Assembly (NCBI GenBank): GCA_016839705.1
Contig: JAEOTR010000041.1
Span: 1-64,000, forward strand
Direction: 5' to 3'
DNA: 64,000 nucleotides
Source of the DNA: Promethearchaeota archaeon
GTDB lineage: Archaea > Asgardarchaeota > Lokiarchaeia > Sigyniarchaeales > SOKP01
The position numbers and the translations under genes are program-made. A model generated the notes under the pieces. It saw only the letters and a program-made list of their open reading frames with translations, searched no databases and had not been told where the DNA came from. Shown one piece after another: positions 7,038 to 49,834 of the stretch (position 1 is the stretch's first letter; each line of letters opens with the position of its first letter).

Positions 7038-7258
7038 TAGATTAAATTTACTTAACTTATTTGTGTGTAAAATATAGTAATCACTAATATTTATCCCTAT
7101 TCTGTTTTCAATACGCTATACTTATTTTTTGGTAATATATACTACCTAAAGCACAAATACTAGTATCACGTTTAAAAAGTATTATAACACGTTTTTATGA
7201 AGACAAAAACTTTTGTAGGATCCTTCAATATATTTATTTTAAGTAATAATATTTTTGC

Positions 7259-7359
7259 GCCTCTGTGGCTTAGCGGTAGAGCAACATTTAAATTCACTTT
7301 GACCTAAATGTTAAAGATTCGTAATCTGTGGGCCGGGGGTTCAATTCCCCCCAGAGGCT
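7259..7359 (+). tRNA. tRNA-Thr(CGU) with 29-nt intron (7286-7314) at position 28/29
   Basis: Acceptor GCCTCTG/CAGAGGC; spliced anticodon arm ACAGA-TTCGTAA-TCTGT; BHB-like AGCA/ACA...TGTT/AAA. Confidence 0.94.
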
Positions 7360-7363
7360 TTAA

Positions 7364-8377: not shown

Positions 8378-8725
8378 GAATTATACAATCTTAATATGAT
8401 GTTTTTAAATAGATCACAAAATGACTAAAATTATTATTTAATATAACACGTCTATCTTAAAAATTTATAGAAAACCAAAATACTATTAAATATTTAGATA
8501 TCATGATTTTCATTTAATTGCAAATGAAATCTTGATAGGTCAAAAAATAACTCGAAAAAAATTAGTTCTTCATATCTTCTCTTCATTGGTTGCCTTACAG
8601 ATAGTTATCTTTTTAAAAACATCGATCAAAGAAAAAAGTGAAGTGAAAAATTGTAAAAATTAATTATATTCTCTTAATTCAATATCTTTAGATAATTAAT
8701 ATCAATATAAAAAATATTAAATTAC

Positions 8726-8840
8726 GCAGGAGTTGCCAAGCCTGGTCTACGGCGCTAGAATATTACGTACGTGTACGATTATGGCGTTACTGAGGCTCTA
8801 GTGACATAGGTCTTCGTGGGTTCGAATCCCACCTCCTGCA
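8726..8840 (+). tRNA. tRNA-Leu(GAG) with 30-nt intron (8759-8788) at position 30/31
   Basis: Acceptor GCAGGAG/CTCCTGC-A; spliced arm CTAGA-CTGAGGC-TCTAG; long variable arm; BHB-like CGCT/AGA...GGCG/TTA. Confidence 0.94.
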
Positions 8841-8942
8841 TACCTAGATCAAATGTTAACATATTGAGTAATATCATACTCAAGATTAATCGGATTTAAT
8901 AATGATCATTAAATACAAAAAATTAATTCATAATAAAATAAT

Positions 8943-10142: not shown

Positions 10143-13100
10143 TTAGAAAAAATCAGCTAACTGATGCTGTTTGATCTTTGGATTGTTAGTTAAGCTCTCA
10201 ACATATTCTTCGATTAGTTCCATTCTTTGAATAGTATATTCATCTAAATTAAACTCCTTACAAAGTTTTAAAGCCCTAGGAATATATTTCGATATTCCTC
10301 CGCGATTAACTGTTAGTATTATTTTATTTCCACATGCAGAACATTTTCCAGCATTTGAAATTGGTGGTCTTCTATATTTTGTATTACATTTTACACATCT
10401 GAATTCCTGCACACTGAATTTTCTTAAATTCCCTAAAATATCTGGATTAAAATGTGTCGAAAGGATTTTTTCTGCTACTTTTCTAGCATCCACTGCCTTT
10501 ATTATTTTAGCCAGATGTAATTGAGCGTCGATTTTATCATCCATGGATTCGTATAGTTTATACGCGGTAATTTTTGGACCTTCATTAATATCATCTGTTG
10601 GAATATTATAGCCAAGATTTTCATATTGTTGTGGAGTCCCTAGTCGATCTTTTACCAATTCAATAACTTTTCCGAGTTCAGAAGGTAATGCATAAGTTTC
10701 AGTAGCTTCAAAAAATTCTAATGGATACTTATATAAAATATCTACATTATGTGCTTGAACATCTACTTCATTTGGATCCAAAATCGACGATATAACTAAA
10801 GTTGCATCCATTCTACCCCCTATCTTATTAGGTAGATAATGTCGAGAGAAATTTAAAAGAGGATCTAATAATAACATAATTCCATCTTCATCACCGTCAC
10901 AGTCTCTTCGCTTCGCAGCATGCCAGAAGGGATGTGCATAAATCGCTCTTGCAGGGCTGAATCCAATAATCCTTCCGACTATGCCAGCACTAGTATGAGG
11001 TGCTAACCCAGCAACTAAATGCCCAATTAGGTCCTCATTTTTAGTAATATTATAAAAGCAATCCATCTTATAAAAACGTTCTAATTCCTCATCAAGAAAA
11101 TTTGCTATTTTGATAAAATATTGAGCACAATCATCTGAAAGGATTACATCTTGCACCCTTAATTCTATAATCTGTTCTAAATCGTTCAAAGGGTCTCCTT
11201 TATAATCGTGAGTATATCCCAATTCTTTTAGTTTTTTAATGCTTATTCCTATTTCCTTAGGTTTAAAATGTGATAACGGTATATCTGTGGCATCATATCT
11301 TATTTCTGCTGTTTTGTAAACTAAAACTTTGTTTTTAGCTCTTAATATCCCCTTCTCTAATGGTTCAGGAACTTTAAACTGATTGGTTAATCCGTAAATT
11401 CCCTTTAATTGTTTAGGTAATGTAATCTGTAAAGAGTCTAAAATTGAATTCACATGCTTCTTTAGATTAAAAATTGCTTCACTAGATGATTTTAACCTCT
11501 CATTACATTGAGGGCATTTACTCCCATCATTTGGATCACTAGGAGGATAGATTTTTTTACATTTCTCACAAATTGATCCCAGTTCAGTATGGGTAGAGCA
11601 ATTAGGACAAATATTAAATATACTTATTGTTCCACAATTTGGGCATTTTTTCCGACATACATCTATTTTTACTCTCTGAAGTTCTAATGCTTTTTCAACT
11701 GATCGAGAACTCCCAACCTTATCACTTAAGGGAAATAAGCTATGAACTCCTTTCATACTTTTCCTCTCCGACTTTTCTGGTCTTCCCATCCTGGACCCAA
11801 TGAAATATGGCGCTTTATTTCTAACTCTTATTGAAGAAATCCTAGTAAAATATGAAAAGACAGTATCTTCACCCGTAGGTCTTACCTTCTTTTTATTATT
11901 TAGACAAAAAATTTCTGAATAAACATAGTTCATGCTTTTGCTAAAATGGATCTTTCCATCGATGATTCTATGAGTGATAAAAGCTTTCTCAAGAATTTCT
12001 TTAATAGAAGGGTCAATTTCTAACACAATTTTGCATTCAGAATCTAAAAATCCTGAGATAAAAGCATCTCTTATTTTACAGAGTTCCTCAATTGTAATAT
12101 TACCCCAAAAATCAGTAAAAACCGGGTGTAGTGGGATATTGAAATCCTTAGATATCTTTATTGCTTCTTTAGCCGTGGGCTTGAGGTAAAAGGGATTTTC
12201 TATTAATTCATTTAACCTAGAATTACTGCTAATTTGATCATTAACCGCTTTTTTTAGTTCTAGTGCCCACCACTCTTCTACATATCCGGAGGGAAGTAAC
12301 TTGTGATTGTTCTCAGCAAAATCCCCAAATCCAAAGAGAATATCTCCTATGAACAATATTTCTTCTAAATCCCTGAACACTTTTTTAGCCATTTTATATG
12401 TTGGAATCCTGATTACATCCCCGTTTATTAATTTTACTATAGGTGGTTCTATACCGCTTACGGGGCAAATACTTGCACTCTTTCCTGGTCTTTCAATTCT
12501 AAGTTGTGTACCAATTGCTACAAAATCGTCTAAAATACCCATTGCAGCAGGGTGCATACCTCCTGCAGCTAAGCCTGTGTTTCGAGATCGTCCATATCTT
12601 ATTCGATGACCTCCAATTGCAGAAGGATGACTAAAAACAGCTCGACCCGCAATTATGTCAGCAACATATTTAAAATTGGGGATAATTTGTTCTTGGGGTG
12701 TTTTTCCACTCCTACTAATTTGTGAATCGGTTTTTTCAGATTGTTCCTTCTGGGCTATTTTTTTTAAATCAGCTAACCAATCCCAGCCTTCCAGGTTCAT
12801 AGATTTAGCAATTTTTAATAATTTTGGAGCTTTTAATAAGAATCCATCGTTCAAAACAAGACATGCTCCTCCTCTTATATGATTTGTCTCTATTCTGGGC
12901 AAATCTCTAAATGCTGAAACTTCTTCTTCTTCGGTTGAATCACCATTTATTTCAATAGGTAAATTTTTAACAGCATATCTTATCTCACGATTCGAGGACG
13001 GATATTGTAGATGAACATTTCTGTCATACAACTTGACCTCTTCTACATATCTACCGATTTCAGCTTCCGTAGCCTCATATTTAGGGATATTTGATTTTTT

Positions 13101-35058: not shown

Positions 35059-35682
35059 ATGAGCCCTATAATTACACATGAAGATGAATTAATGTTAGCA
35101 AAGTCTGAGAACGAATTAGTCTCGCAATTCAAAAAACTAGCAAGAGCTCAAAGTGCCTTGATCAGTTCTCAAAAAAAATATGCTGAAAATATCTCAAAGG
35201 CTAATATTACGCGAGAAATGTTAAACAGAATCTTCAGGGACGTATTAAAACAAATGCAAACTCTTGCTCGAGAGCATAGATCTAACATTAAGGATGAAGA
35301 AGTACAGTTGTATAAAGAGATAATTCAGCAAAATGATGAATATATTAAAGCAAATAATACATATTTGAATGCAATAAAAGATATAGCGATTCAAAAGGAA
35401 TATTTAGTAGCAAAGAAAGATGAGTTTGTGGAAGCGTTATCTGATCTCGCAGATAGAAGATCAACTGTAATTAAAAAAGCGTTAAATGTTGAAAAAGCAA
35501 AGAATAAACTAATAGATGGGGATAAATTAAATATTCTTGACCAAGAACTAAATGATGTTCAAAGAGATTTTGATAGAGCGCGTGATATTCTACTCAAGAA
35601 AATTCATCAATTTAAAGAAGTTCGAGAAGAAACTAATACCCTTTGGCTTAAATTAAAGGAAACTATAAGAGAATTTAGCTAG
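35059..35682 (+). CDS. All-helical coiled-coil protein, BAR-domain-like
   Basis: 207 aa, essentially Pro-free, long amphipathic helices; BAR assignment is inference. Confidence 0.6.
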   Translation: MSPIITHEDELMLAKSENELVSQFKKLARAQSALISSQKKYAENISKANITREMLNRIFRDVLKQMQTLAREHRSNIKDEEVQLYKEIIQQNDEYIKANNTYLNAIKDIAIQKEYLVAKKDEFVEALSDLADRRSTVIKKALNVEKAKNKLIDGDKLNILDQELNDVQRDFDRARDILLKKIHQFKEVREETNTLWLKLKETIREFS

Positions 35683-35811
35683 TAAACCCAGTTCCTTCTT
35701 TTTTCTATATTTATAACACTCGACATATTATGTTTAGACTTAAGTTTATTAAATAGAAATATATATAATTAATAGAAAGATTTTAATTGAAATTATAAAA
35801 TTGTTAGAAAT

Positions 35812-36264
35812 ATGTGTGCAGAAGAATTTGCCTCTTTTTTAGATAATACAAGAAAAGCACCAATGGAAGAAAAATTAAGTGCCTTCGGTGACATAGTTGA
35901 AAAAATAATGCAAATCGTGCTAAAAATACCTGATTTAGTAGACCATAGTCTTCAAGATATCAATTCAAAGGTCTCAAATTTACAAAATCAATTGACTTCC
36001 ATAAATCGAGATATTTCATCACTAAAATCAAGATCTGGTGGTCCAACTGCTGCTATTCCTGCTGTTTCAAATGCACCTGGGGCTCTACCTGGAGGTCCAC
36101 CTGGAGGTCCACCAAGAAGTCCGCCACCACCGCCTGGTGCACCACCTGGGGGACCTGGTCCTGGTCCTGGTCCTGGTCGACCTGCACAACCAGTATCGCT
36201 AAGAGGTGCAATTATGGGTGAATTAAAAGAACTGTTTTCTCGTCGTAGACAGGCATCTGGCTAA
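35812..36264 (+). CDS. Coiled-coil / polyproline / C-terminal helix protein
   Basis: Heptad region, GPPGGPPRSPPPPPGAPPGGPGPGPGPG, then SLRGAIMGELKELF. Confidence 0.85.
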   Translation: MCAEEFASFLDNTRKAPMEEKLSAFGDIVEKIMQIVLKIPDLVDHSLQDINSKVSNLQNQLTSINRDISSLKSRSGGPTAAIPAVSNAPGALPGGPPGGPPRSPPPPPGAPPGGPGPGPGPGRPAQPVSLRGAIMGELKELFSRRRQASG

Positions 36265-36556: not shown

Positions 36557-37135
36557 TCAAAACTCTAAAAATCCAGGATCATCAAAGATATCATCGATTT
36601 TTCTTTCCTTTTTTATTTTTGAATCACTTTCCGCAAATAAGGATTCCTCATCTGTTCGAACCCCTCGCTCTAATTCTTCAGTATCAAGTTTTAATATTGC
36701 ATCCTTTTCAAGTCGTTTATACTCTTCAGACTTCATCTTCCAATTACTAACTTCATCTAAATCTACATTATCTTCTTCTAAAAGTATTCCCGCCTTAACC
36801 TTACAGAGATCTGATAAAATAGAGTAAGATAAAGCCACGTCTCCCCATTCGTTATCTATTTTTAATTTTTGTACTCGTTTCTCTATTCTATAAAGCTCTT
36901 GATCAGCATAAAATATGTCTATAAAATCTCCAAATGCATCAACGGGTTCTGAAATTGAATTTACTAATACTTCCTTTGTCAATCCGCAATTTCCACATTT
37001 TACCGTAGCAAAGGCTCCTTTTTTCTTAATATCAGTGATTTTAACACTTTTTTCCCCACATTCTGGACAGGTAAAGATTTTAGGAACTCTTTTTACTCGT
37101 TTTGGTGAAACTTGCTTCCTTTTACGACGTCCCAT
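36557..37135 (-). CDS. elf1: Transcription elongation factor Elf1 with C-terminal extension
   Basis: MGRRKRK..FTCPECG..CGNC...EPVDAF..FID. Confidence 0.88.
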   Translation of the reverse strand: MGRRKRKQVSPKRVKRVPKIFTCPECGEKSVKITDIKKKGAFATVKCGNCGLTKEVLVNSISEPVDAFGDFIDIFYADQELYRIEKRVQKLKIDNEWGDVALSYSILSDLCKVKAGILLEEDNVDLDEVSNWKMKSEEYKRLEKDAILKLDTEELERGVRTDEESLFAESDSKIKKERKIDDIFDDPGFLEF

Positions 37136-37344: not shown

Positions 37345-38445
37345 ATGGAGCATAAAAACTTAACATTGGAAGATGATGAAAAGTTAATAGAGAATATTAT
37401 GAATGATCTGGAAATGAGATATATTGTTCTTTTTCTCTATGTAATAAGAAATGATTTACTTAAAGATTTGAGCGATAAAACTCTTATTGAATCCTATGAA
37501 AGAATTCTAGTATTAGATGAAATATATAAAAACAATATTGTTAACTTTTGGGAGGATGAATTTATTGATGTATATATTGATCTAGGATTAATAAAAAACA
37601 TTCGCAGTAAAAGAGAATTTGATCAAAAAGATGACGATTTTATGATTAAATTAGGGGAAGAAACAATAACTATTGAAGAGGATACGATTTCTGTTCCTGA
37701 TGATACATTATTTTTAATCATTAACAAAAAATTTAAGGATTTAACAAGGAGAAATTTTAATTTAGCTCTCACAAGATTAAAGGGAGTAAGGTGTGAAAAA
37801 AGCAGTGTTATACACTCATTAATATTTGAAATTGGCGAACATGATTACACACTTTCAAATGATTTGTATTATATTTTAGATCAATTTGGAAATATTTATC
37901 AAGCTATTAAAATAGAGATTACAATAGAAGGCTTTTATCAAAGATTTAAAGATATTGAGGAGAAAGTTAACGATTTCATTAAGATTTTTAATCCGGTGTT
38001 AAATACTAAACCCCTTTTAAAAAAAATAAATAGTGCTATTGCGGAAGATAAAGAAATTATAAATTACTTAAAGGATGAGAAGGTTGAACTCCCAGAAAAA
38101 TTTAATTTTGGGAAAATAAGTAGAGAAAATCCATTATTTAAGAATTGGAATTCACAATTAATCTCACTGCTTAAGTTAAGATATCAAATGATGCAAATTG
38201 AAGAAAGAATAGTGGGATTAAAAGGCAAGTATTCAGGTAAGGAAAAAGAATTTACATACCTTGAATTTGTTGAGCGGGTTACCTATAATGAAGATAATTT
38301 ATTAGATGATATTCAGAAATCATTAGTCGAGTATAGGAAAGAATTAGTTGAAATAAGTGAGCAAATTTCAAAAGTAACAAAGAAAGAAATAAAATTATTA
38401 AATTTAGATTATGAAAGGTTATTAATAACTAGTGATGATGACTAA
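37345..38445 (+). CDS. Hypothetical protein (winged-helix-like plus coiled coil), operon gene 1
   Basis: 366-aa ORF in a tightly spaced co-directional cluster. Confidence 0.8.
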   Translation: MEHKNLTLEDDEKLIENIMNDLEMRYIVLFLYVIRNDLLKDLSDKTLIESYERILVLDEIYKNNIVNFWEDEFIDVYIDLGLIKNIRSKREFDQKDDDFMIKLGEETITIEEDTISVPDDTLFLIINKKFKDLTRRNFNLALTRLKGVRCEKSSVIHSLIFEIGEHDYTLSNDLYYILDQFGNIYQAIKIEITIEGFYQRFKDIEEKVNDFIKIFNPVLNTKPLLKKINSAIAEDKEIINYLKDEKVELPEKFNFGKISRENPLFKNWNSQLISLLKLRYQMMQIEERIVGLKGKYSGKEKEFTYLEFVERVTYNEDNLLDDIQKSLVEYRKELVEISEQISKVTKKEIKLLNLDYERLLITSDDD

Positions 38446-38447
38446 TA

Positions 38448-39416
38448 TTGAATTGCCCATCTTGTAATATTGAAATGAAGTCGTTAGTTGCTGGGATTTT
38501 TCAATGCCCGCAGTGTAAAAAAATTATTAAGGAGAAGGGAGAGGAAACTCAAGATCAAGAAAAGTCAAAAATTGAAATGGGAGATTTTTATGAAGGAGAA
38601 TATTTTCATAAAAATGCCAGTTTAAACAAACAATTTGAAATTTGCGAAAAAGGAATTATTATTGATAAAACAGGAAATCGCATATTTGCGGCATTAATTT
38701 GCCATAGTGCTTATTTTAAAGAGGAGAAATATGTTAGATTGTCTTGGTGGAAGAATTTTCAGCATGCGGGTATGTTTAAAATCTATGATAAAAATGTTCT
38801 TTCAAACACGATTAGTGCTTTAGAAAAAATCCAGGAAACTTTTAATGACATTTGGGATTGGAGTGGAAAATATGGGAAAAAAGAGCCTAAAACAGATGAA
38901 GAGCTGGAAAAAGAAAAGAATTTGGAAATCATCAAATATAGAATATTAGAGAACCGAACCTGTCCTAGATGCTTAAAAAAAATGGATAAAAAGAAATCTC
39001 ATTATGAATGTCAACATTGTGGTGAGATTGTTATTTTAGAAGGATATAATCAACCTATTTTTAATATTAGTCCTGAAGATCTTGATTTGCATTTTCATGG
39101 AAATTTTCCCATAAATTTTTATTTACCCGTTAGTGGAATAACCATTAAATGGCTAATGGGGGAATGGAAAGCCATAGTAGTTATATATTCAAAAGACAAC
39201 CCCAATAAAAAGTGGCTAAGGTTTTATTGGTGGGTAAGAGATCTGAGTAATATCTTAAAATATGGTCAAAGAGAAATGGGAGAAGGTACTCAAATGGGTT
39301 GGAAAGTTCAAAGAGGAATTTCATCACCAAATATTTATGATAAAAAACAAATTATGAAATTAATAAAAGCTCTTAGAAAAATATCAGCAGAATTGAATTG
39401 GGAAATCTCACAATAA
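38448..39416 (+). CDS. Protein with two (Zn ribbon + PC4-like) modules, operon gene 2
   Basis: CPSC..CPQC and CPRC..CQHC, each followed by related YVRLSWW / WLRFYWW segments. Confidence 0.75.
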   Translation: MNCPSCNIEMKSLVAGIFQCPQCKKIIKEKGEETQDQEKSKIEMGDFYEGEYFHKNASLNKQFEICEKGIIIDKTGNRIFAALICHSAYFKEEKYVRLSWWKNFQHAGMFKIYDKNVLSNTISALEKIQETFNDIWDWSGKYGKKEPKTDEELEKEKNLEIIKYRILENRTCPRCLKKMDKKKSHYECQHCGEIVILEGYNQPIFNISPEDLDLHFHGNFPINFYLPVSGITIKWLMGEWKAIVVIYSKDNPNKKWLRFYWWVRDLSNILKYGQREMGEGTQMGWKVQRGISSPNIYDKKQIMKLIKALRKISAELNWEISQ

Positions 39417-39442
39417 TAATTATGTAAATTGGAGTTGCTATT

Positions 39443-40582
39443 ATGGAGGAAATTCAGGACACAACATGGAAAACATTAATGAAGGATTTTGAGAATGGCC
39501 TTGAAGTAGCTACAGCGGAATTGCAAAAACGAGATGTAGAAAATATTCCTGGAGCAAAGGAAGCATTAATTCAAAGGTTATCTAATATGAAACTTCATTT
39601 TCCCAAAAATAATGGAGAAATTTTTTTGAAATCGATAAATGAAACAATCCAAAACGCATTTTTCCCCAATACAAAAAACTTTACTGAGGCTTTTGAAAAG
39701 ATCTTGAAATCAAGAACTCATGAGCAAGATTTCATAATTAATGAATTACTAAATGGATTTGTGGCATCAAAAGCAAAGGCAATTGCTTCTGGTACGCAAG
39801 GACCAATTATAGATAGAATGGTTGAAGCTTTTAGTAAAAGAAGTGATTTTCATATTGTTGATTATCAATTTTTTGCGATGTTCGGGGATCCGAATAAACC
39901 TCGCCATTATATAAAAAAACAACTTGAAGAATTGGTGAATATGTTTGGACTCGTTTCAAAAGAACTTGTCATAGAGAAAGACGTGAGAAGGAGCGAGGAA
40001 AAGATATACACTTTTTATACTTTTCCCGATGATATCATAGGAATACTTGAAGAAAAATATTTAACAATCGATCCTGATTTGGGATATGCTTATGTATCTG
40101 AGGGATTTGATAGGAATGTCTTTATTTGTATGTTTCTTGCTAATATTACCATAAATAGAGATGATCTGGATAAAATTGGAGGGTCTTTTACTATTAATGG
40201 AATTTCTGCTATTTTTGCATTAATTTTATTATTAAGTTTTATGCCTAAACTATCAGTCGATGAAACAAATCCCATTTTGAATGATCCTAGTTTTGATGCA
40301 AATAACATGAGTGTTATTCCAAAATCTTGGATGATGAAACAAGTGTTGGAACCCTTATTTGACCCACTGATCAAAATCATCGCATATAGAGTGGGAGGAG
40401 GCCTTTGGTTATCAAAAATTATAGATTCTGAGATTAACAAAAAAATTCATCAACAAATAAGATTTCTTATTAAAGATGTAAATAAGTGGATCTTAGGAAA
40501 TTTATGTAGAGTCGAGATACCTATTTTTGTCGAAATCTCAAATATATTTACTGAAATTTTAGTAGGATATGATGAAGAATAA
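39443..40582 (+). CDS. Hypothetical protein, operon gene 3
   Basis: 379-aa ORF; GGAG upstream; possible central wHTH. Confidence 0.8.
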   Translation: MEEIQDTTWKTLMKDFENGLEVATAELQKRDVENIPGAKEALIQRLSNMKLHFPKNNGEIFLKSINETIQNAFFPNTKNFTEAFEKILKSRTHEQDFIINELLNGFVASKAKAIASGTQGPIIDRMVEAFSKRSDFHIVDYQFFAMFGDPNKPRHYIKKQLEELVNMFGLVSKELVIEKDVRRSEEKIYTFYTFPDDIIGILEEKYLTIDPDLGYAYVSEGFDRNVFICMFLANITINRDDLDKIGGSFTINGISAIFALILLLSFMPKLSVDETNPILNDPSFDANNMSVIPKSWMMKQVLEPLFDPLIKIIAYRVGGGLWLSKIIDSEINKKIHQQIRFLIKDVNKWILGNLCRVEIPIFVEISNIFTEILVGYDEE

Positions 40583-40608
40583 GATTATGAGGAGTGCCTA
40601 GTTTATAG

Positions 40609-41913
40609 ATGAGTTACCAAAAAAAAAGTAGTAGAACCATTAAACCTGGAAGGAAGAGAGAAAAGTGGACAGATATTCTTCCGAGATATCTAACATTCAT
40701 TAGCCATATGCGTCCTATATTAAGAGAAACTCGAAGAATCATAATTGAACTAGATGCTGATTTGTTATTCGATACAGAAATTTTAGATAAAATTCGTCAA
40801 GAGGAGGAAAAAAGAAATATTCGCAAAGTAAGAGCACTTTCCGAATTTTCAGCTATGTATAGATCAAATGTGTATGATATTATTAAAGATTTCATCATTA
40901 AATATCGAGAAGAAATTCAAATAATAGATATTAAAGATTATATTATAGAGTTTCTACATGAGTCTGTTAATGCTTTAAATGTCTTACAACACATAACTAA
41001 CCCTGATGAACGTGACATAGAGAATACGTATCTATATCAATTAGTAAAATTTATCGAAGAGATCATATTTCCCAGAGGTTCAAACTTAAAAATCATTTAT
41101 GAAAAGTTATTAGAAAATTCATTAAATTATTATGAATGTCAAAGACATATTTTACAACCCCATACTTATTATAGGGAAAAATTAGAGAGTCTTGATTATT
41201 TTGAAATTCCGGGAATATCACCAAAAGTATATCAAATTATTAATAACATTACCTCCCTTTACAATTTAGATCCTAATTTTGGGGAATTTCCTGAGAGGGA
41301 AAACCATGAAATCCCTATGATTTTAAAAAATGACGTCTTCTTGCCATATATTGATTCTATTGCCAATGCTGAGGAAGAAGCCATAGAAAGAATTGCTGAG
41401 CGATTAGGATTAAGATTAGTAGATGGTATATTTCTTGCACCACATGAGGATTTTGTAAATATTCTCCTTGAAAATAATTATCTACGTGAAAATAAGCAAT
41501 CAGATGGAAAAATAAGGTTGCTACCTCAATTCAGTAATGAAACACTGATAATTTATTATTTAGCTTTCTCATCACAGCGAAGAGGGTTTTTATCCAAAGA
41601 GTTGGTAAATTGGATTTCAATGAATTTTGCCTTTCTTGTTTATATGGGTATTCTGAAGTGGAAATTATCAGACGAGAATATTTTTTATACTATTTTTAAA
41701 GATTTACAAACAAATGAAAAGATATTACCATATTTAATGAAGCTTATATGTTTTCCTAATTATTTAGGAGTAGATAAGATGAAGATCAGAGATTCAGTTC
41801 AATATCGTAAAGAAATTTTTAATTTCATTGGATCTCAGATTGATAACCTTAAAGATTTTATAAATGAAATTGCTAATTTCTGTATGAAATTTGATAAAAG
41901 AAATAACGAATAA
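40609..41913 (+). CDS. Hypothetical helical protein, operon gene 4
   Basis: 434-aa ORF; GAGGAG upstream; basic N-terminus. Confidence 0.8.
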   Translation: MSYQKKSSRTIKPGRKREKWTDILPRYLTFISHMRPILRETRRIIIELDADLLFDTEILDKIRQEEEKRNIRKVRALSEFSAMYRSNVYDIIKDFIIKYREEIQIIDIKDYIIEFLHESVNALNVLQHITNPDERDIENTYLYQLVKFIEEIIFPRGSNLKIIYEKLLENSLNYYECQRHILQPHTYYREKLESLDYFEIPGISPKVYQIINNITSLYNLDPNFGEFPERENHEIPMILKNDVFLPYIDSIANAEEEAIERIAERLGLRLVDGIFLAPHEDFVNILLENNYLRENKQSDGKIRLLPQFSNETLIIYYLAFSSQRRGFLSKELVNWISMNFAFLVYMGILKWKLSDENIFYTIFKDLQTNEKILPYLMKLICFPNYLGVDKMKIRDSVQYRKEIFNFIGSQIDNLKDFINEIANFCMKFDKRNNE

Positions 41914-41936
41914 ATTATAATAAGAGTGGAGTAAAA

Positions 41937-43046
41937 ATGAGTAAAAAAAAAGAGGATAATGGCGTAATCATTACCTATACGGATGATGTTATTAAGGAAC
42001 GTCTAGGTAAATATGGGGCAGTTTATTTTTCTGCAGATATCAAAGAATCTGTAGAAGATATTTTAGGGAATGAAGTTAAGAAGGAATTACTAGACGATTT
42101 CTTTAAAGCTTTAATGAAGTATGACGAATTTATGGAACAATTAAAAAATACAAAATTAAATCCTAATTTAACAGTACTTTTATATGGTCCTCCAGGTACT
42201 GGTAAAACATCATTAACAAGAGGATTTGCTAAGAAATATAATATTCCCTTATGTGTTGTAGAATCTGATAGACTTGTATCTCCATTACTCGGAGATACGA
42301 TAAAAAATATAAGAGGTGTTGTTGAACTTGCATCAGAAATTTCAAAGGATAGAGGAGCTTTTATTCTTTTTTTTGATGAAATTGATGCTATTGGTTCTGA
42401 AAGATCTAATATTCACGAAGTTGGAGAAATTAAACGCGCGGTAATATCTTTTCTACAAGTTATTGACAGAGTTAATTATGAGGGTGTACCATTAGCGATA
42501 TTTGGAGCAACTAACCATCAACATCAACTTGATTCTGCGATATGGCGTCGTTTCACCTTCCATTTCAGATTTGACTTCCCTAATTACCAATTGCGAAAAA
42601 AGATAATTGAATCTTTTCTCGATAAGATAAAAGATGCAAAAATAGGCATCGATAATTCCATATTTACAAATTTGAATTCCGAATATGATGAAATACAAAC
42701 AATACATAAAAATTTAGAAAATAAACTAGGGCATAAAATTTCTGAGTTTGATGATGATATGTTATGGGATGAGATCACCAAAAAACATAAGAGGGAGGGT
42801 CTGTTAAAATTGACTTATGGTTATTCTGGGTCTGATATTGAAAGAGGAACAAGAGTGGCATTATTTAAGGCAATTAATGCGGAACTTCTTACCCATGATA
42901 TTTTCTATAACTCCCTAAGACTAGTTGGAGGCACTGCTATTCATGTTCAAAGACAAGACATACTGAGTAGTGATAGAAATTTAGCAAGAGGAACCAGAAA
43001 TTCTAAGGAAGAACGAAAAGATTTACCCTCTCCCCCCGAAATTTAG
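41937..43046 (+). CDS. Single-domain AAA+ ATPase (classic clade), operon gene 5
   Basis: GPPGTGKT, FFDEID, ATN..LDSAIWRRF and GYSGSDI. Confidence 0.93.
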   Translation: MSKKKEDNGVIITYTDDVIKERLGKYGAVYFSADIKESVEDILGNEVKKELLDDFFKALMKYDEFMEQLKNTKLNPNLTVLLYGPPGTGKTSLTRGFAKKYNIPLCVVESDRLVSPLLGDTIKNIRGVVELASEISKDRGAFILFFDEIDAIGSERSNIHEVGEIKRAVISFLQVIDRVNYEGVPLAIFGATNHQHQLDSAIWRRFTFHFRFDFPNYQLRKKIIESFLDKIKDAKIGIDNSIFTNLNSEYDEIQTIHKNLENKLGHKISEFDDDMLWDEITKKHKREGLLKLTYGYSGSDIERGTRVALFKAINAELLTHDIFYNSLRLVGGTAIHVQRQDILSSDRNLARGTRNSKEERKDLPSPPEI

Positions 43047-43070
43047 TGATATTAAATATATTGACTTGCT

Positions 43071-44111
43071 ATGAAAGAAAATCAAGTATTTAATCTTGAA
43101 AAGATTAAGGACCTCACCGCTTCTATTGATGTGCTCCAAGCTAGAGTTCATCAATTAACAGAAAAATCGTTGAAAGCTGAAACCTGGAAAAAATTATTGA
43201 TAGAAAGTTTTTCAGGAGAAAATAATCTTTCTCAAACTGATATTATCTCAGATTTATTAGTAAATATAAGCAAAAAGTTACAAAAAATTGCGAGGGAAAA
43301 TATTGGTCAATTTTTAAACTTTCAAGAAGGATTAATAAGAAAATATAAAGAAATCAACCAGCAGAAATTAAAGAAAATAAAACTAGATGAAGATTCATTG
43401 AGAAGAATAGGTTTATTTCTAATTGAAAATAGAAATATAAGCAAGTTAATTCATCAAATTTCCTACACTCCTTCTTTAGAAGTTTCTTTATGGATAGAAA
43501 TCTTAGACTCGCTCCAACAAAACTCTTTGTTTTTAAAAATAATGAAAAGAATCGCACTATATAGAGAAAATTTAATACACGATAAACTCAAAATAGAAAT
43601 CAAAAAAATTCCTAAAGATACGGAAACATCTTTAGTAAATGAATATGAAAAAGCTTTTTTAGAAGATCCTGAGTTGTCTTTTAAGGAATTTCTTCAAATC
43701 ATCGAGAACAATTTAACTCAACAAGAATTAAAAGAAAAAAGAATATTTTTAAAAGAAGCAAAAGAAAAAGAAGAATTAGAAAATTTGAAAAAAAATCAAG
43801 AGGAACACAAAGAAACTTATAATGATTATCTCAAATTATCTGATAGTGAATTCAAGAGAAAAAGGCGTAAGAAATCTAGAGAAAAATTAAAATCCATAAC
43901 AATAGATACCAAAGAAATAAAAGAAATAGAGATTAGTGATGAAATCACTGAAAAAATTGAAAAATTTAAATCTAAGTTTGACAAAACTTTCGAAGAAAAA
44001 TATTTAATTCAAAAAGATGATGAAAAAGATCCTCTTGATCTAGTAAGGGAAAGAAAAAGAAAAAAGGAAAGTGAATACAAGCAGTATAAAGATCATTTTG
44101 AAGAAAACTAA
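43071..44111 (+). CDS. Charged coiled-coil hypothetical protein, operon gene 6
   Basis: 346 aa; E/K-rich C-terminal half. Confidence 0.8.
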   Translation: MKENQVFNLEKIKDLTASIDVLQARVHQLTEKSLKAETWKKLLIESFSGENNLSQTDIISDLLVNISKKLQKIARENIGQFLNFQEGLIRKYKEINQQKLKKIKLDEDSLRRIGLFLIENRNISKLIHQISYTPSLEVSLWIEILDSLQQNSLFLKIMKRIALYRENLIHDKLKIEIKKIPKDTETSLVNEYEKAFLEDPELSFKEFLQIIENNLTQQELKEKRIFLKEAKEKEELENLKKNQEEHKETYNDYLKLSDSEFKRKRRKKSREKLKSITIDTKEIKEIEISDEITEKIEKFKSKFDKTFEEKYLIQKDDEKDPLDLVRERKRKKESEYKQYKDHFEEN

Positions 44112-44123
44112 TTAATAATTTAG

Positions 44124-45752
44124 AAGTGTTGTAAGATCCAGACGAAAAATTTCAAAATTTCTATTGGTTCGAAAGAGATATCAATTCAAGAAAGATACAC
44201 TCTAATTAAAGGAATAATTAAAAGAAACCAAATTGAAAATTTAAAAAATGAAGCTTTCACTGGAGTTCTAAAAGAATTAAATATAATTTCTCTTGACAAA
44301 TTCATTAATCTCTATCAAGGTCGATCTGATAAATTCAACAAACTAGAGAAATCTCTTGAAATATTGAATCTATTTGAAGAATTTAATAATATTCTGGAAA
44401 AAAATATTGAAACTATTTCTCAATATTTCGAATTTATCCAATCTATGATTCTGATATTAAGATCGAAGATACTCCTAAAAAATAGAGAACAATTATTAAA
44501 AGAATTAGAAATTACAGAAAGGTTTAAACAATCTAGCGACGTTAAAGCCATTACAAATCTTTTGCAAAAATTAAACGAGTCTATGGATGATAATAAGAAG
44601 AAAATAAAATATTTAGAAGAAGATTACTTACAACGAAAAAACCAAAATAACCAGTTTATAAAGCAAAAAACTGATTTTATCTCAAGGATACAAGAACTAA
44701 CTCAACTAAAAAAAAGTTGTTTTAGTCAAATTAATAAAATCACTCGAGAGATGTCGGGGAATTCTATAGACAAGAAAGAGAAATTAAATGGAATAATTGA
44801 AATTGATAATAATATGACTAATGCTCAAAAAATAAGAGCTCTCCAAACGAAGGCAAAAGAAGTACAAATTGAGATTAGGGAACTCAATTCAAATCTAGGT
44901 GACTTGAATTTAAGATATGAAGAGTTTAATCCGATTTATCAGACTTATAAACAGGACTACAATAATCTTATTGAAATTATTAATAATGATGCAAATAAAA
45001 TTGAGGAATTGCAATTTAAGCTTAGAGAGGAGGTTAAAGAAAGTGAAAACGATAGTTCCCAGACCTATGATGACCTTGATTTGAAGTCAATACGATCAAA
45101 ACAAGAAATTGAAGAAGCTATTAAAAATACGACTTCTGAGATAAAATCACTATCAATTCCCAATAATTTAATTAACTCTAAAAACCCAGAAGATTTATCA
45201 CTTGTAATAGAAAAGTTAAATCATTTTAATGATACAGCAAGCACTTTGGAGAAAGATGTTAGAATAAGTAAGGAAGAAGCTGAACTTGAGGAGATTTTTG
45301 AATCTTTTCAAAAGTTAGAGATGGTTATTTCTGATCTTGAACATCTTATTAATATCTTTTTATCGAAAATTAATCTAGAATCACATTTCCAAATTCTATT
45401 AAATGATAATAATAAGATGTTTTATATTCAATCATCTTTTACTCGGAATAATAAAGAAAAACTTATTTTCGATAAATTAACTACCCCAGAGAAGATATTT
45501 TTTATTATTATCTATTTTATTTCAATCGAAATCCAACTTAAAAATAACAATATAGTTTTTTCAAATCAATTTATACCAAGTAATTATAATAAAGCAGGTT
45601 CCATTTATAGAACAATTAGAAAAATAATCCCTCTTTTTGAAAGTGAGGATTTTTCAGAATTTAACTTAATATTTATTCTATCAAATTTAGAAATGAAAAA
45701 AGAAATTAAAAATTTAAAAATAATAACGATTCAAGAAAGTAGTGAAACTTAG
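44124..45752 (+). CDS. Degenerate SMC/Rad50-like coiled-coil protein, operon gene 7 (true start uncertain; track start 44364)
   Basis: Frame open from 44124: KIQTKNFKISIGSKEISIQERYTLIKG resembles an SMC N-terminal head; long coiled coil; C-terminal LTTPEK resembles the LSGGEK signature. Confidence 0.6.
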   Translation, partial: KCCKIQTKNFKISIGSKEISIQERYTLIKGIIKRNQIENLKNEAFTGVLKELNIISLDKFINLYQGRSDKFNKLEKSLEILNLFEEFNNILEKNIETISQYFEFIQSMILILRSKILLKNREQLLKELEITERFKQSSDVKAITNLLQKLNESMDDNKKKIKYLEEDYLQRKNQNNQFIKQKTDFISRIQELTQLKKSCFSQINKITREMSGNSIDKKEKLNGIIEIDNNMTNAQKIRALQTKAKEVQIEIRELNSNLGDLNLRYEEFNPIYQTYKQDYNNLIEIINNDANKIEELQFKLREEVKESENDSSQTYDDLDLKSIRSKQEIEEAIKNTTSEIKSLSIPNNLINSKNPEDLSLVIEKLNHFNDTASTLEKDVRISKEEAELEEIFESFQKLEMVISDLEHLINIFLSKINLESHFQILLNDNNKMFYIQSSFTRNNKEKLIFDKLTTPEKIFFIIIYFISIEIQLKNNNIVFSNQFIPSNYNKAGSIYRTIRKIIPLFESEDFSEFNLIFILSNLEMKKEIKNLKIITIQESSET

Positions 45753-46263
45753 AATGGAATTGGAAAATGTTGAAGAAGTAATAAGGAATGTTACTAAAAT
45801 TATCTTAACTAATCCCCAAAAAATGATAAGAGAAGAAGATTTGAAAAATTTGAGCAGAGATTTTAACTTTGATTTTGTAATGAGTCAAATTTATGTAAAA
45901 TTACAAGATATTGGTTTTGAATTAATCAAAACAACATTTCTTGAACAAAAATTTTATATTTTAACCTCTGAGGGTAAGGATGATAATGTTACACCATCGC
46001 AATACGGTACTTTAGCTTTAATAGTTGCTCTAAGCAAAGAAGTTGATGAGAATATAAAAATTGAGGATTTAAAAGAGATTTTTGCTGAAACATGGGATAG
46101 TGACATTCAATTTTTAATTGATAATGATTATCTTAGAAAATTTGAAGAACTAGGGATAATAAAAGTGGCACCATTGGGGAAAGCTATCATGAAAAATATC
46201 ATTGGCGATATCCAATTAAAGAATTTACTAGAGTTGTTTAAGGAAGACCATCAAAATGAATAA
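45742..46263 (+). CDS. Tandem winged-helix protein (kite/ScpB/Nse-like), operon gene 8
   Basis: LQDIGFELI..FYIL linker, then IQFLIDNDYL..KVAPLGK; overlaps the SMC-like gene. Confidence 0.6.
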   Translation: MKLRMELENVEEVIRNVTKIILTNPQKMIREEDLKNLSRDFNFDFVMSQIYVKLQDIGFELIKTTFLEQKFYILTSEGKDDNVTPSQYGTLALIVALSKEVDENIKIEDLKEIFAETWDSDIQFLIDNDYLRKFEELGIIKVAPLGKAIMKNIIGDIQLKNLLELFKEDHQNE

Positions 46264-46281: not shown

Positions 46282-47490
46282 TCAAATAATAATATCAACG
46301 ATGTTTTGTTGTAGTATTTGTGGCATTAGTCCGAATGCCTCTATCCCATCAACCGAAATGGCATTTGGGAATGCTTTTTTCATTATATTATATGCTCCAT
46401 TCACGTCAGCATTGAGTAGAACACCTTTGGAGGTTTTGAACAGACCTCTGGAAATTCTTTTTCCTACATAGGTTTCATGTTTTCCAATCGGTTCATTATC
46501 CAAGAAAGAGCATTTAGAAGTATGATTTTCATTAACAGTTAAAACATGAATTCCTTTTAATTGAGCTTTATATTCGATTTGTTTTACTAATTTCAAGAAA
46601 GGGATTTGCACAAATTTCTGATTATTTTTTTTTCCAATATTAATCTTCTGCTTCCATCCATGATTATAACCTATTATAATTGTTCCAATGTTATGTAAAG
46701 TGCAATATTCAATTATACTCTTAGAGATTCGATGAAATAATGTAGTAAGTTTATTGTTTCGAGTTAAATGGAGTTTTTGAATCCGTTTTGTATCATTAAA
46801 ATTGCCTTTCTTACTTTCAATACTCCTATAATATGCTAATTGCTTGTTATAATATTGATTTATAGATTTTATCATCCCACCCTTAATAATAAATGGTTTA
46901 CATCCATTATTATTTACAGCAGTTATGAGATTATTTAATCCTAAATCAATGCTTAGCAAATGATCTTTATCTAATCTTAAATCATTCTCTTTTTTTTCAT
47001 AAACAAGCTCAACTTTATATTTTACTCCTAAAGGGATTATCCTTACTTCTTTTAATCTTTCTGTAATTCTTGTTTTAATTGGGTTAATATTTACTCTTTT
47101 TGGAAAGTGTATATATCCTTGTTTTATCGTGCATTGCTGATTGGTGAAAATTACTACAGATTCCCCCTTTTTCTTTTTATATCCTGGAATTTTAGGTCTT
47201 CTTTTAAATTTCCTAAAATCAAGCCTATACTCCTTGAGACCTTTAAAATATGATTTCCAATTTCTGTTCACGTATTTGAGGATTTGCTGTGATGTCTGAG
47301 AAGGAAGACTTTGGTAAGCTTGTTTGTTTTTAAGAATGAAATCTAAGTCATAATAAGTTAAAAGATTATTGAGATTAAAAAAATCTTGTCTAACATACCA
47401 ATTAGCTAAATTGTAAAGGTTTTTAGCTAAATGACATATTGTTGATAATTCTAATGAATATTCTACTTGGATAACTTCAGTTAATCTCAT
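46282..47490 (-). mobile_element. tnpB: Solo TnpB (IS200/IS605/IS607 superfamily, IS1341-like, no tnpA)
   Basis: KNLYN, SIDLGLNNL, ENHTSKCS and NADVNGAYNI; sits between convergent housekeeping blocks. Confidence 0.93.
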
Positions 47491-47642: not shown

Positions 47643-48059
47643 TTAGTCTTCAAGATCCATTTTAAATTGCTCGTAAATTTTTCTAACTCTGTCTGCCGAA
47701 GGCCCTTCTCCACGTACGCCTGATTCATCGACTATAATTTTCCCACTCAATATTGAGATTATGTTTTGATCTTCAATATAATTCACATGTCCTTTCGAGA
47801 AAATAGTGGCTATCCGTTCGCTAAGCGCAACCATAGGAAAGGGTTCTTCTTCTAAACTCACAAAATTATAAAAATTACTCCTTATAAACAATTTTGGGAA
47901 TGTTTTATTTTTTTCATTTTTCACATTAATAAGGATAAGGTTTGAATCTTCTGAGATTCCTTTTAATTGGCCAACAAAAAATTTATCCTTATCAATGTAT
48001 ACTTTAACGATTTTATCAATAAGCGTTGCTAACTCAGTATTATATTGTCTAAATGACAT
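47643..48059 (-). CDS. Sm-like protein with C-terminal domain (SmAP3 type)
   Basis: Sm1 motif GQLKGI...NLIL plus C-terminal V.ESGV.G.GP.A.RV..IY. Confidence 0.88.
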   Translation of the reverse strand: MSFRQYNTELATLIDKIVKVYIDKDKFFVGQLKGISEDSNLILINVKNEKNKTFPKLFIRSNFYNFVSLEEEPFPMVALSERIATIFSKGHVNYIEDQNIISILSGKIIVDESGVRGEGPSADRVRKIYEQFKMDLED

Positions 48060-48880: not shown

Positions 48881-49834
48881 TTATCTCCCTAATTGGATTC
48901 TATATACAATGTATGCTCCCAAAATCCCACCTAGATCCGGTAAATAAAACAAAATATATATAGGATCACTAAGCGCAAGTAATAACCCCGGCAATAATCT
49001 GAACAGGATTATTATATATAAAAATGTTCTTCCTTTCAATCTAATTGGAAGAAAATACATCATTGCAGTAATCTGTTGATTCATAATAGGAAAAAGTGAA
49101 TAAGACAATATTCCTAATATTCCACCCCACGCAAATCCAACAAATATTGAATTCTCAATCCTATCTATTGGTATATAAAAATGCAAAGATAATCTCATTA
49201 TAATATAAAACAACGCAGAAAATAAGCTACTTATGATATACAACTTAAATAAAAATTTAGGGCCTTTTCTTGCTTCAATATTTCTTGCCATAAAATAAAG
49301 AAACATTAACATTATAATCAATAAGAAAAATCCAAAAAAATCAATTTCACTTATAAAAAGACTTGTAATAAATGTATGGTAAGTAAAATCAAAGATTAGA
49401 CCGTATAAACTCAAATAAATATATTGAGGAAGCCCATAAAGACCAAAAATTATCCCAACAATTGAAAAAACGATAATCATTACAAATAATGTCTTTGTGC
49501 CTGAAAATTGAGTAGACTTTTTATAAAGTTGTTGGCTACTCTCATAAGTCTTTAAGGTTTTCTTTCTTTCTCGATCCTGTCTTTTTAGATATTTTTTTAA
49601 TGCCTTTGGGCCTTGATCTAAATATTCTTGAGATTTAGGTTTTTGTAAATCTACATCTGGATAGCGTTTCTTTGTGCTTTTTGGAGTGGTGGGTGCAACT
49701 GATACATGCTTTAATTCAAATGTACATTCATGATTTTCAGGCAATCTATGTTTCTTACAAAAAGTTCCACCACAATATTTACAAGTAAAAGGTAGATATC
49801 CAATCTGTTCACCACAAAACTCACAATACGTCAA
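48881..49834 (-). CDS. AN1 zinc finger plus rhomboid-like membrane domain (catalytic dyad absent)
   Basis: C..C....[22 protein letters not shown]; about 6 TMs; IE...G...F..LY rhomboid pattern. Confidence 0.8.

Follow-up and report, generated by a model that had tools for sequence, protein, structure and literature searches.

The 64,000-nucleotide stretch of Promethearchaeota DNA analysed here (the window) carries an operon of eight genes in which a classic AAA+ ATPase is encoded together with a kite protein and an SMC/Rad50-fold protein devoid of ATPase motifs (Table 1). We read the eight genes, with a probability of roughly one half, as encoding one DNA-associated SMC-type complex, vertically inherited and descended from an Smc5/6-like SMC-kleisin-kite machine; that their products would assemble into a complex is suggested by gene order. 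The role of such a complex has about even odds of being cellular DNA handling, and defence is a possible but less probable role. No published description of this eight-gene set was found.

Table 1. Genes of the operon and their predicted products
Gene	Coordinates	Strand	Product
gene 1	37345..38445	+	366 aa orphan, constant module
gene 2	38448..39416	+	322 aa, two zinc-ribbon repeats
gene 3	39443..40582	+	379 aa orphan, highly conserved
gene 4	40609..41913	+	434 aa orphan, most conserved of the eight
gene 5	41937..43046	+	369 aa single-domain classic AAA+ ATPase, IetA-like
gene 6	43071..44111	+	346 aa helical, Lys/Arg/Glu-rich tail, poorly conserved
gene 7	44124..45752	+	542 aa predicted hinge-less SMC/Rad50-fold pseudo-ATPase without ATPase motifs
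gene 8	45742..46263	+	173 aa predicted tandem winged-helix kite

The eight co-directional ORFs occupy positions 37345-46263 of the window, with intergenic gaps from gene 1 to gene 8 of 2, 26, 26, 23, 24, 12 and -11 bp, the last being an overlap of genes 7 and 8, and GGAG/GAGTGG-like motifs are present 5' of genes 1, 3, 4 and 5. These coordinates, gaps and motifs confirmed the original prediction of a tightly spaced, co-directional set with SD-like motifs. The frame of gene 7 is open from 44124, where there is no canonical start, and the first ATG/GTG/TTG is a TTG at 44364; the 80 codons before it are most likely translated, because they are conserved in orthologs and show a pN/pS of 0.36 relative to the same-genus ortholog. 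Crude, uncorrected pN/pS values ranged from 0.07 to 0.30 across all eight genes (0.16 for gene 1, 0.10 for gene 3, 0.07 for gene 4 and 0.26 for gene 6), revealing purifying selection on all of them that is strong on genes 3-5 (0.07-0.12), with genes 6-7 evolving much faster than these.

Of the 18 related loci fetched, 15 show the eight genes in this order, and the order holds across genera and both families in which the operon occurs, as had been expected of Asgard relatives. Together with the low pN/pS values, this recurrence argues that the set is more than a chance association. Gene 4 was found in 115 of 134 and 12 of 14 genomes of the two families, usually as one full-length match per genome, and in none of the 251 genomes sampled from other Asgard families; its relatives make up only 45 clusters among 1.84 billion representatives. 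Gene 7 was similarly present in 117/134 and 10/14 genomes, including 36 of 39 high-quality ones. The operon is thus confined to two related families of one Loki-type Asgard order, with no sign of spread beyond it. In the genome search with gene 4, identity was around 85-91% for most of the genus, 74-80% for most other genera of the family and around 50% for the other family, and this drop with taxonomic distance fits vertical descent.

Gene 7 had been proposed to hold remnants of an SMC-like head, and structural comparison bore this out. Its AF2 model (pLDDT 83.7) consists of strands at residues 10-30, helices at 74-416 and a C-terminal alpha/beta part at 418-536, corresponding to an SMC/Rad50 head plus around 340 residues of coiled coil. 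The top Foldseek matches were all SMC-family heads at probability 1.0 (Rad50 at 2.8e-8, MukB, Smc, JetC, Smc5/6 and LmuB). Smc5/6 also stood atop the VIA list with Z 11-13, and head-spanning alignments were obtained with Rad50 (4ncj_D, Z 11.2, rmsd 3.9 over 201 residues) and Smc5/6 (8hqs_B, Z 11.3, rmsd 4.3 over 223 residues), although coiled-coil-only matches reach Z-scores at least as high. A head with an antiparallel arm is therefore seen in the AF2 model, Foldseek and VIA. By contrast, the ATPase motifs are eroded: Walker A, signature and Walker B are degenerate in 16/16 orthologs. The P-loop position has TLIxG and then variable residues, and the Walker B position has IIFSN with no conserved acidic pair; the signature is LTTPEK in the family to which the window belongs and has degenerated further in the other family. 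Neither a hinge nor a zinc hook was found in the 16 orthologs, and the apex (residues 211-232) is a low-confidence, unconserved loop without CxxC. On its modelled fold, gene 7 is an SMC/Rad50-type pseudo-ATPase.

The assignment of gene 8 as a tandem wHTH kite also held. Its AF2 model (pLDDT 86.3) shows two consecutive winged-helix domains, whose top Foldseek matches were MAGE-G1/Nse3, MAGE-A3, Nse1 (7dg2_A, TM 0.54, rmsd 4.2), ScpB and JetB. A Foldseek-independent search of 48,161 chains returned MAGE-G1 (Z 10.1) and Nse1 (Z 10.0) as its top two, both alignments spanning the two domains (rmsd 3.7 over 151 residues for Nse1). In sequence comparison gene 8 did not fall into a kite Pfam family: SMC_ScpB, MksE, MAGE and DUF4194 were absent from the 25 listed of 28 Pfam families matched by 16 orthologs at E <= 1, hhalign against Loki ScpB gave an E of 0.054 over 23 columns, and the Atlas leads were low-scoring (MAGE 0.79, DUF4194 0.75). 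The model identifies gene 8 as a kite of the Nse1/Nse3 kind. Kite proteins (ScpB, MukE/MksE/JetB, Nse1/Nse3) bind the middle of the kleisin. The original prediction had alternatively offered an ESCRT-II/Vps4-like membrane-remodelling system, with gene 8 of the Vps25/Vps22 type and gene 5 Vps4-like; ESCRT-II chains do occur in the Foldseek list of gene 8 (2zme_A at E 0.015, 3cuq_A, 1w7p_D), but only from rank 20, and kite proteins come first in both structure searches.

Gene 5 was likewise correctly taken for an AAA ATPase (Pfam AAA, 4e-26), and it holds the only NTPase domain detected among the operon proteins. All 19 sequences show Walker A (GPPGTGKT), Walker B (LFFDEID), sensor 1 (GATNH) and the RR fingers (WRRF) unchanged; the pore loop, SPLLGD in most orthologs, keeps an LLG-type core without the aromatic residue of pore loop 1. 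Its nearest solved structures are VAT/p97, and it scored far better against PADLOC IetA (2e-58, 196.3 bits) than against TRIP13 (1e-18). This classic AAA is the other feature that would suit an ESCRT reading, but neither MIT nor Vps4_C was among the Pfam matches shown, CdvC scored only 80.6 bits (cut-off 650 bits) against 173.7 for NCBIfam IteA and the above IetA score, gene 7 has an SMC fold, and no ESCRT-III (Snf7) family appeared in the operon among the Pfam matches shown. Membrane remodelling is consequently very improbable.

The remaining genes gave few matches. Gene 1 is present in all type A loci fetched except L042, where the stretch ends short of it, and L049, where it was not found; it had no Pfam, PDB-profile or Atlas match. 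A kleisin (ScpA, MukF/JetA, Nse4) has an N-terminal helical domain and a C-terminal winged helix, and bridges SMC neck and cap. The suggestion that gene 1 is the kleisin found no sequence or feature evidence in those searches, and searches with Pfam, PDB profiles, Atlas and hhalign connected neither gene 1 nor gene 6 with kleisins or with the Nse4_C-like protein described below; no kleisin was recognised in the standard operon by these sequence searches. Gene 2 is built of two repeat units, in each of which a CxxC...CxxC zinc ribbon precedes a Trp/Tyr-rich domain of around 110 aa. In an 18-ortholog alignment C20, C23, C172, C175, C188 and C191 are invariant, the leading CxxC of the first ribbon being missing from two rows that start later, and the motifs YxRLSWW and KWLRFYWW are conserved. 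Its family matches were to zinc-ribbon families only, so the proposed PC4-like binder was not recovered. Gene 3 has 72-89% identity to most of its own family and 52-54% to most of the other; it has 636 database relatives, and none of the 120 listed contains a Pfam domain, those with a name being called "hypothetical"; no PDB-profile match was found. Gene 6 has a mean column identity of 39% (16 orthologs), matched only coiled coils in the PDB and could not be connected by hhalign with proteins of the sister operon.

This rare sister operon was found in two genomes, G135 and G141, at the site of the standard operon, with the same flanking genes. Divergent genes 1 (25% identity, E 1e-7), 3, 4 and 5 are accompanied there by an SMC of full length with intact motifs and by weakly Nse4-like and kite-like proteins. 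The SMC (1057-1071 aa; GKNGSGKS/GKNGTGKS; Pfam AAA_23 at 2e-17, SMC_N) has the Walker B DEFD and aligns end to end with the hinge-bearing second SMC that the window genome has in addition to a canonical Smc-ScpB locus. A 313-aa protein matches Nse4_C weakly (E 0.0013), so the sister operon holds a candidate kleisin separate from its gene 1 homolog; a 325-aa protein matches MksE (E 0.006). The original suggestion that an AAA+ ATPase may replace the dead SMC ATPase is too simple: the motifs of gene 7 are dead and those of gene 5 intact, but the AAA module also sits beside a motif-intact SMC. The module therefore does not simply stand in for the dead ATPase, and an ancestral partnership is more probable than a late replacement.

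Genes 1-5 can be regarded as a constant module and genes 6-8 as the pseudo-SMC/kite part. In two genomes, G179 and G253, an island of 8-11 kb lies exactly between genes 5 and 6, showing that co-transcription is not obligatory; in G179 a second Elf1-like gene precedes gene 6. These observations, and the much faster evolution of genes 6-7 than of genes 3-5, would suit two independent modules that are merely adjacent, an AAA machine with adaptors and a pseudo-SMC/kite scaffold. However, the two parts adjoin in 15/15 standard loci fetched, the two island-split ones included, remain linked in both sister operons although both modules have diverged deeply there, and in the window are packed with gaps of 12-26 bp and the overlap of genes 7 and 8. 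We consider mere adjacency unlikely.

The island codes for an ATPase resembling Rad50/LmuB, a PAPS reductase resembling BrxP (2e-46), a protein resembling nicking endonucleases (7e-46) and a TGT-family protein with weak similarity to DpdA. Defence genes are often clustered, and such defence-like neighbours raise the tentative alternative that the operon serves immunity or restriction of foreign DNA, as do Wadjet, Lamassu or eukaryotic Smc5/6, with the SMC-like arm sensing foreign DNA and the IetA-like AAA controlling an unrecognised effector encoded somewhere in genes 1-4. No fold has been assigned to genes 1-4 or 6, which leaves room for a hidden effector. Two deeply diverged versions of the operon occupy one locus even within a genus, G135 and G136 carrying different ones, which requires recombination or transfer; such variation at one locus is more typical of immunity loci. 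Moreover, a TnpB gene is inserted directly 3' of gene 8 in the window, and in two MAGs that are otherwise complete the contigs break at the operon locus. The named family nearest to gene 5 (PADLOC, NCBIfam) is IetA, an anti-phage/toxin-antitoxin ATPase described as playing the antitoxin-like part in an anti-phage system whose mechanism is unknown (PMC13069673). Against defence speak the high presence and conserved position across two families, with divergence that tracks taxonomy, the lack of spread outside the order noted above for gene 4, and the strong purifying selection on genes 3-5. In addition, Pfam, PADLOC and NCBIfam searches of the eight proteins revealed no effector domain such as a nuclease, protease or TIR, the PADLOC matches being to the AAA of gene 5 only, and the putative sensor, gene 7, has had a dead ATPase since before the two families split.

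If the eight products do form one SMC-type complex, gene 7, probably as a dimer, would constitute with gene 8 and the basic-tailed gene 6 a passive DNA-holding scaffold, to which gene 2 would add nucleic-acid contacts. A hexamer of gene 5 could be recruited through orphans 3 and 4, and perhaps 1, its ATP use driving assembly, release or remodelling of the scaffold or of a client held by it; the presence of the AAA module may have let the SMC ATPase decay. More speculatively, the operon may represent a third, lineage-specific SMC machine of Loki-type Asgard archaea, in which the AAA+ ATPase and two to four novel adaptors would drive or regulate an arm-and-kite scaffold derived from Smc5/6 that has lost its own ATPase. 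On the prevailing view, SMC complexes rely on an ABC ATPase cycle of their own; if the speculation is true, an SMC complex would here be powered or recycled in a novel manner, among archaea closely related to eukaryotes, and a conserved, selected SMC relative without ATP site, permanently linked to an AAA+, would be a natural experiment uncoupling scaffold from motor. Asgard archaea are the archaeal group closest to eukaryotes, and Smc5/6-type complexes with their Nse partners are thought to have originated there, so the operon could bear on the evolution of SMC regulators and loaders. With its intact SMC at the shared locus, the sister operon offers a ready-made comparison, and the hypothesis may become testable in cultured Loki-type strains, provided that the operon is present in them. 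Were the role defence, the operon would constitute an immune system specific to Asgard archaea and without a recognised effector.

Compared with known systems, the operon resembles IetAS (AAA ATPase IetA plus serine protease IetS) in that the AAA domain of gene 5 scores best against IetA models, but gene 5 lies far below the NCBIfam equivalog cut-off (173.7 vs 510 bits), no IetS subtilisin-like protease or other peptidase family was found in the eight proteins by Pfam, and the partners are entirely different. Lamassu LmuACB and the archaeal ASRP/ClsN/Sph proteins include short SMC-like proteins of 500-700 aa (PMC12663957; PMC9389158), and gene 7 is likewise short, with a head and shortened coiled coil and LmuB chains among its Foldseek matches; however, Walker motifs are retained in LmuB and ASRPs and a zinc hook in ASRPs (PMC9389158), features that gene 7 lacks, and neither an LmuA-type effector nor a PADLOC LmuB match for gene 7 was found. 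As in Wadjet JetABCD/MksBEFG, an SMC and a kite (JetB and MksE among the matches) are encoded in one operon with accessory genes, and the system may act against foreign DNA. Unlike Wadjet, it has a dead SMC and no match to the JetD/MksG Toprim nuclease or to JetA/MksF, none of JetA, JetB, JetC, JetD or Lmu matching the eight proteins in PADLOC at E <= 0.1, and it is restricted to one order and conserved in position rather than patchy. Archaeal "SMC5/6-related" SMC-kleisin-kite operons exist in TACK and Asgard archaea (bioRxiv 10.1101/2024.01.07.573240; PMC8665677). Unlike Smc5/6-Nse1/3/4, gene 7 is half-size and lacks hinge and ATPase motifs, the standard operon has no recognised kleisin, and the window genome separately keeps its two other SMC systems. 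There are also five extra conserved genes, including the classic AAA+ ATPase, and we found no paper reporting such genes in any SMC complex. Nevertheless, as in Smc5/6, an SMC-fold gene adjoins a kite gene matching Nse1 and Nse3/MAGE, Smc5/6 heads lead the VIA list of gene 7, and the sister operon pairs a full-length SMC bearing the DEFD Walker B with a weak Nse4_C match.

The evidence directly supports an operon in which a motif-dead, hinge-less arm with the SMC fold (gene 7) is linked, throughout the range of the gene family, to a kite protein (gene 8) and a motif-intact AAA+ ATPase (gene 5); a sister version exists in which the SMC itself has intact motifs. The eight co-directional genes with gaps under 30 bp of the original prediction were confirmed, successive gaps being 2, 26, 26, 23, 24, 12 and -11 bp (the last an overlap), with GGAG/GAGTGG-like motifs upstream of genes 1, 3, 4 and 5. 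Crude, uncorrected pN/pS values against a same-genus ortholog range from 0.07 to 0.30 across all eight genes, lowest in genes 3-5 (0.07-0.12) and highest in genes 6-7 (0.26-0.30).

The AF2 model of gene 7, from 16 orthologs (pLDDT 83.7), consists of N-terminal strands, an antiparallel coiled coil of about 340 residues whose apex is disordered, and an alpha/beta part at the C-terminus. All leading Foldseek matches were SMC-family chains at probability 1.0, with Rad50 (2.8e-8), MukB, Smc, JetC, Smc5/6 and Lamassu LmuB among the matches. With VIA-align, Smc5/6 heads came out on top (Z 11-13) and a head-spanning alignment to Rad50 reached Z 11.2 (rmsd 3.9 over 201 residues), a comparison that does not fix the SMC subfamily because coiled-coil-only matches were found at similar Z. 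Comparison of the gene 7 profile with intact SMC-like proteins by hhalign returned matches in the coiled coil only. In each of the 16 orthologs the P-loop, the signature motif and Walker B (reading IIFSN) have degenerated, and hinge and CxxC hook are absent; the signature reads LTTPEK in the family of the window's genome (own family) and is further degraded in the second family of the order that carries the operon. The SMC-like head remnants first noticed thus belong to an SMC-family fold, by AF2 and Foldseek, whose ATPase motifs have decayed. As the degeneration is common to all 16 orthologs, loss of the ATPase predates the split of the two families, and selection has maintained the protein since then.

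The gene 7 frame is open from 44124, and its first ATG, GTG or TTG is the TTG at 44364. The first 80 codons correspond to the conserved N-terminal strands and have a pN/pS of 0.36 against the same-genus ortholog, so that they are most likely translated. An in-frame ATG, GTG or TTG is lacking where these strands begin in 7 of 16 genomes, namely in the window (44109-44364) and in the fetched loci L039, L040, L041, L042, L043 and L050. Genes 6 and 7 of the window lie in one reading frame, with nothing between them but TAA (44109), three codons and TAG (44121); in L050, gene 7 directly follows the gene 6 stop, in frame. Non-canonical initiation (ATA/ATT/ATC), reinitiation or recoding at the gene 7 start is possible.

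Gene 8 was modeled as a tandem winged helix (pLDDT 86.3). Foldseek was led by MAGE-G1/Nse3, MAGE-A3, Nse1 (7dg2_A, TM 0.54, rmsd 4.2), ScpB and JetB, and a search of 48,161 chains by a method independent of Foldseek gave MAGE-G1 (Z 10.1) and Nse1 (Z 10.0, rmsd 3.7 over 151 residues) as its top two matches, each spanning both domains. Both structure searches therefore place Nse1/Nse3-type kites first, in agreement with the proposed tandem wHTH of ScpB/Nse1-3 type. At the sequence level no kite family was detectable, and hhalign gave no significant match to Loki ScpB or to the small proteins encoded next to the genome's second SMC. An ESCRT-like system had been offered as another reading of the operon; ESCRT-II does occur among the gene 8 Foldseek matches, from rank 20 only, and we consider this alternative very improbable.

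Gene 5 encodes, as expected, an AAA ATPase (Pfam AAA 4e-26), a 369-aa single-domain protein of the classic AAA+ type; 19 sequences all retain Walker A, Walker B, sensor 1 and two arginine fingers without variation, and pore loop 1 (SPLLGD) has no aromatic residue. Its closest solved relatives are VAT/p97/Cdc48 domains, and its closest named family is IetA (PADLOC 2e-58, versus 1e-18 for TRIP13), with 173.7 bits against the NCBIfam IetA model, far under the 510-bit equivalog cut-off. The operon contains no protease partner for gene 5 and is therefore not an IetAS system. A C-terminal PPEI (or PxEI) tail is conserved in most own-family genomes and differs in the second family, in the sister operon and in two island-bearing genomes (G179 and G253), where the C-terminus is also longer. 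Covariation of this tail with the SMC module was considered and dropped, as G179 and G253 have standard genes 6-8 yet another tail.

Of the remaining genes, gene 2 carries two copies of a unit made up of a zinc ribbon and a Trp/Tyr-rich domain, and gene 6 is helical and poorly conserved, with a basic tail. No relatives of known function were detectable for genes 1, 3 and 4, and ESM Atlas scores for gene 1 were at chance level. Profiles of genes 1, 2, 3, 4, 6 and 8 matched, among all PDB sequences, zinc ribbons and coiled coils at most.

The window corresponds to contig 25 of an Asgard MAG of 3.36 Mb. In public databases, close relatives of gene 3 carry the labels Lokiarchaeota, Promethearchaeota or Lokiarchaeia and, where named, are termed hypothetical. 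Gene 4, usually a single full-length match per genome, is present in 115/134 genomes of the own family and 12/14 of the second, and in 0/251 genomes from the other Asgard families sampled. Across most of the genus its identity is about 85-91%, dropping to 74-80% for the majority of the family's other genera and to about 50% in the second family, as expected under vertical descent. The gene 7 profile has matches in 117/134 and 10/14 genomes of the two families (36/39 high-quality genomes), and none in the order's two small remaining families (0/1 and 0/4, all incomplete genomes). Among 1.84 billion cluster representatives, the gene 4 profile found just 45 clusters; four single-protein scans for the context of its distant relatives (P0141-P0164, one bearing a Helarchaeota label) gave no result.

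Gene order, examined by tblastn and ORF inspection in 18 fetched loci, is 1-2-3-4-5-6-7-8 in 15 of them (13 within the stretch first fetched, two beyond an inserted island), so the arrangement is conserved among related Asgard genomes. As for the exceptions, the fetched stretch of G161 stops before genes 1-3, G134 yielded no gene 1 and has other ORFs separating gene 2 from gene 3, and G135 carries the sister operon instead. Five genomes without genes 2-4 were considered as true losses, an idea dropped given assembly problems at this spot in most of them. Most absences are probably assembly gaps, since the neighboring Elf1-like gene is cut in G238 (its match starting at the contig start) and matched only over its last third in G268, and since G187, one of two nominally single-contig genomes lacking both genes 2-4 and the Elf1-like gene, has genes 7-8 in a stretch containing a run of 100 N.

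The sister operon, deeply diverged, was found in two second-family genomes, G135 (single contig) and G141; G136, of the same genus as G135, has the standard form. It lies inverted between the flanks of the standard operon of other genomes (a GHMP-kinase-like gene, a 144-aa gene, a 683-aa gene and an AN1 zinc-finger gene), with gene 2 also alongside. Identities to the standard genes are 25% for gene 1', 26% for gene 3', 21-23% for gene 4' and 38% for gene 5'. These are followed by an SMC of 1057-1071 aa with intact Walker A (GKNGSGKS/GKNGTGKS) and Pfam matches to AAA_23 (2e-17), AAA_21 and AAA_29, SMC_N being below cut-off; it aligns end to end with the hinge-bearing second SMC of the window's genome (22% identity, E 6e-16). 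Next comes a 322-325-aa protein with a weak MksE match (E 0.006), in a segment that aligns with the second winged helix of gene 8 (hhalign E 0.003). A 313-aa protein has a weak Nse4_C match (E 0.0013), and 140 columns of a 176-aa protein align to the gene 8 profile (E 0.043); genes 1 and 6 gave no hhalign match to the 313-aa and 322-aa proteins. Singly weak, these matches jointly point to an ancestral SMC-kleisin-kite complex of Smc5/6 type.

Genes 1-5 form a module that stays constant and occurs with an intact SMC as well; the AAA is hence more than a substitute for a dead ATPase, and the suggestion that it replaces the ATPase of the SMC was too simple. That the eight genes form two unrelated modules, merely adjacent, is unlikely. 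Elsewhere in the window's genome, contig 49 carries an Smc gene, then a 333-aa ORF (a candidate ScpA) and ScpB, and the second-SMC locus on contig 73 is probably the genome's Smc5/6-related operon, which makes the standard operon a third SMC-type locus.

Coordinates of the operon, its neighbors and related features
Feature	Location	Strand	Remarks
Eight-gene operon	window 37345-46263	+	
Gene 5 C-terminal tail	window 42990-43046	+	
207-aa and 150-aa genes, upstream of operon	window 35059-36264	+	syntenic with operon in most genera of family
Elf1-type zinc-ribbon protein	window 36557-37135	-	Pfam Zn_ribbon_Elf1 1.7e-18; C-terminal extension about 115 residues
TnpB/IS605 OrfB-type gene	window 46282-47490	-	OrfB_IS605 8e-19; Cas12f1-like TNB 3e-11
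Conserved flanking 138-aa ORF	window 47643-48059		
Conserved flanking AN1 zinc-finger gene	window 48881-49834		
Island in G179	L101 (G179:C7:22000-38000) 891-8275		
Island in G253	L102 (G253:C55:44000-60603) 593-11380		
Second SMC, hinge-bearing, 1155 aa	G000 contig 73, L104 5562-11526	-	flanking ORFs 426, 216, 175 aa, no Pfam match

The divergent Elf1-like gene adjoins gene 1 in most loci fetched; its synteny with the operon extends to most of the genomes checked, and G179 has a second copy ahead of gene 6. The TnpB insertion in the window separates gene 8 from the conserved flank. G179 and G253 carry an 8-11 kb island between genes 5 and 6, encoding a Rad50/LmuB-like ATPase (644-669 aa, intact motifs including Walker A, CxxC hook), small paralogous proteins (136-156 aa) and a BrxP-like PAPS reductase, together with a nicking-endonuclease-like HhH-GPD protein in G179 and DUF5591 plus a TGT-family, weakly DpdA-like protein in G253. 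A separate "type B", with the Rad50-like ATPase replacing genes 6-8, was ruled out, those genes lying intact 8-11 kb further on. The defence-like character of the island separating genes 5 and 6, the TnpB insertion, the two haplotypes at a single locus and the affinity of gene 5 to IetA all favor a role of the same architecture in immunity or against foreign DNA, which we entertain only tentatively.

A role in cellular DNA handling is the reading we prefer, at a probability of roughly 0.5. A passive DNA-binding scaffold would be built from gene 7, probably in dimeric form, together with gene 8 and with gene 6 and its basic tail, and gene 2 would make nucleic-acid contacts. A gene 5 hexamer, acting via the orphans 3 and 4, would supply the sole ATP-driven step, in which the scaffold, or a client, may be loaded, released or remodeled.

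Among known systems, the closest are the SMC5/6-related operons of archaea and eukaryotic Smc5/6-Nse1/3/4 (bioRxiv 10.1101/2024.01.07.573240), then Wadjet/MksBEFG, and after that Lamassu and the archaeal ASRP/ClsN proteins (PMC9389158). The operon shares the fold of the SMC superfamily but not its defining ATPase and hinge or hook; unlike SMC-kleisin-kite systems it has no recognized kleisin, and unlike Wadjet and Lamassu it has no Toprim or Lmu effector. The operon also has an additional AAA+ module, which no paper found in our literature search describes.
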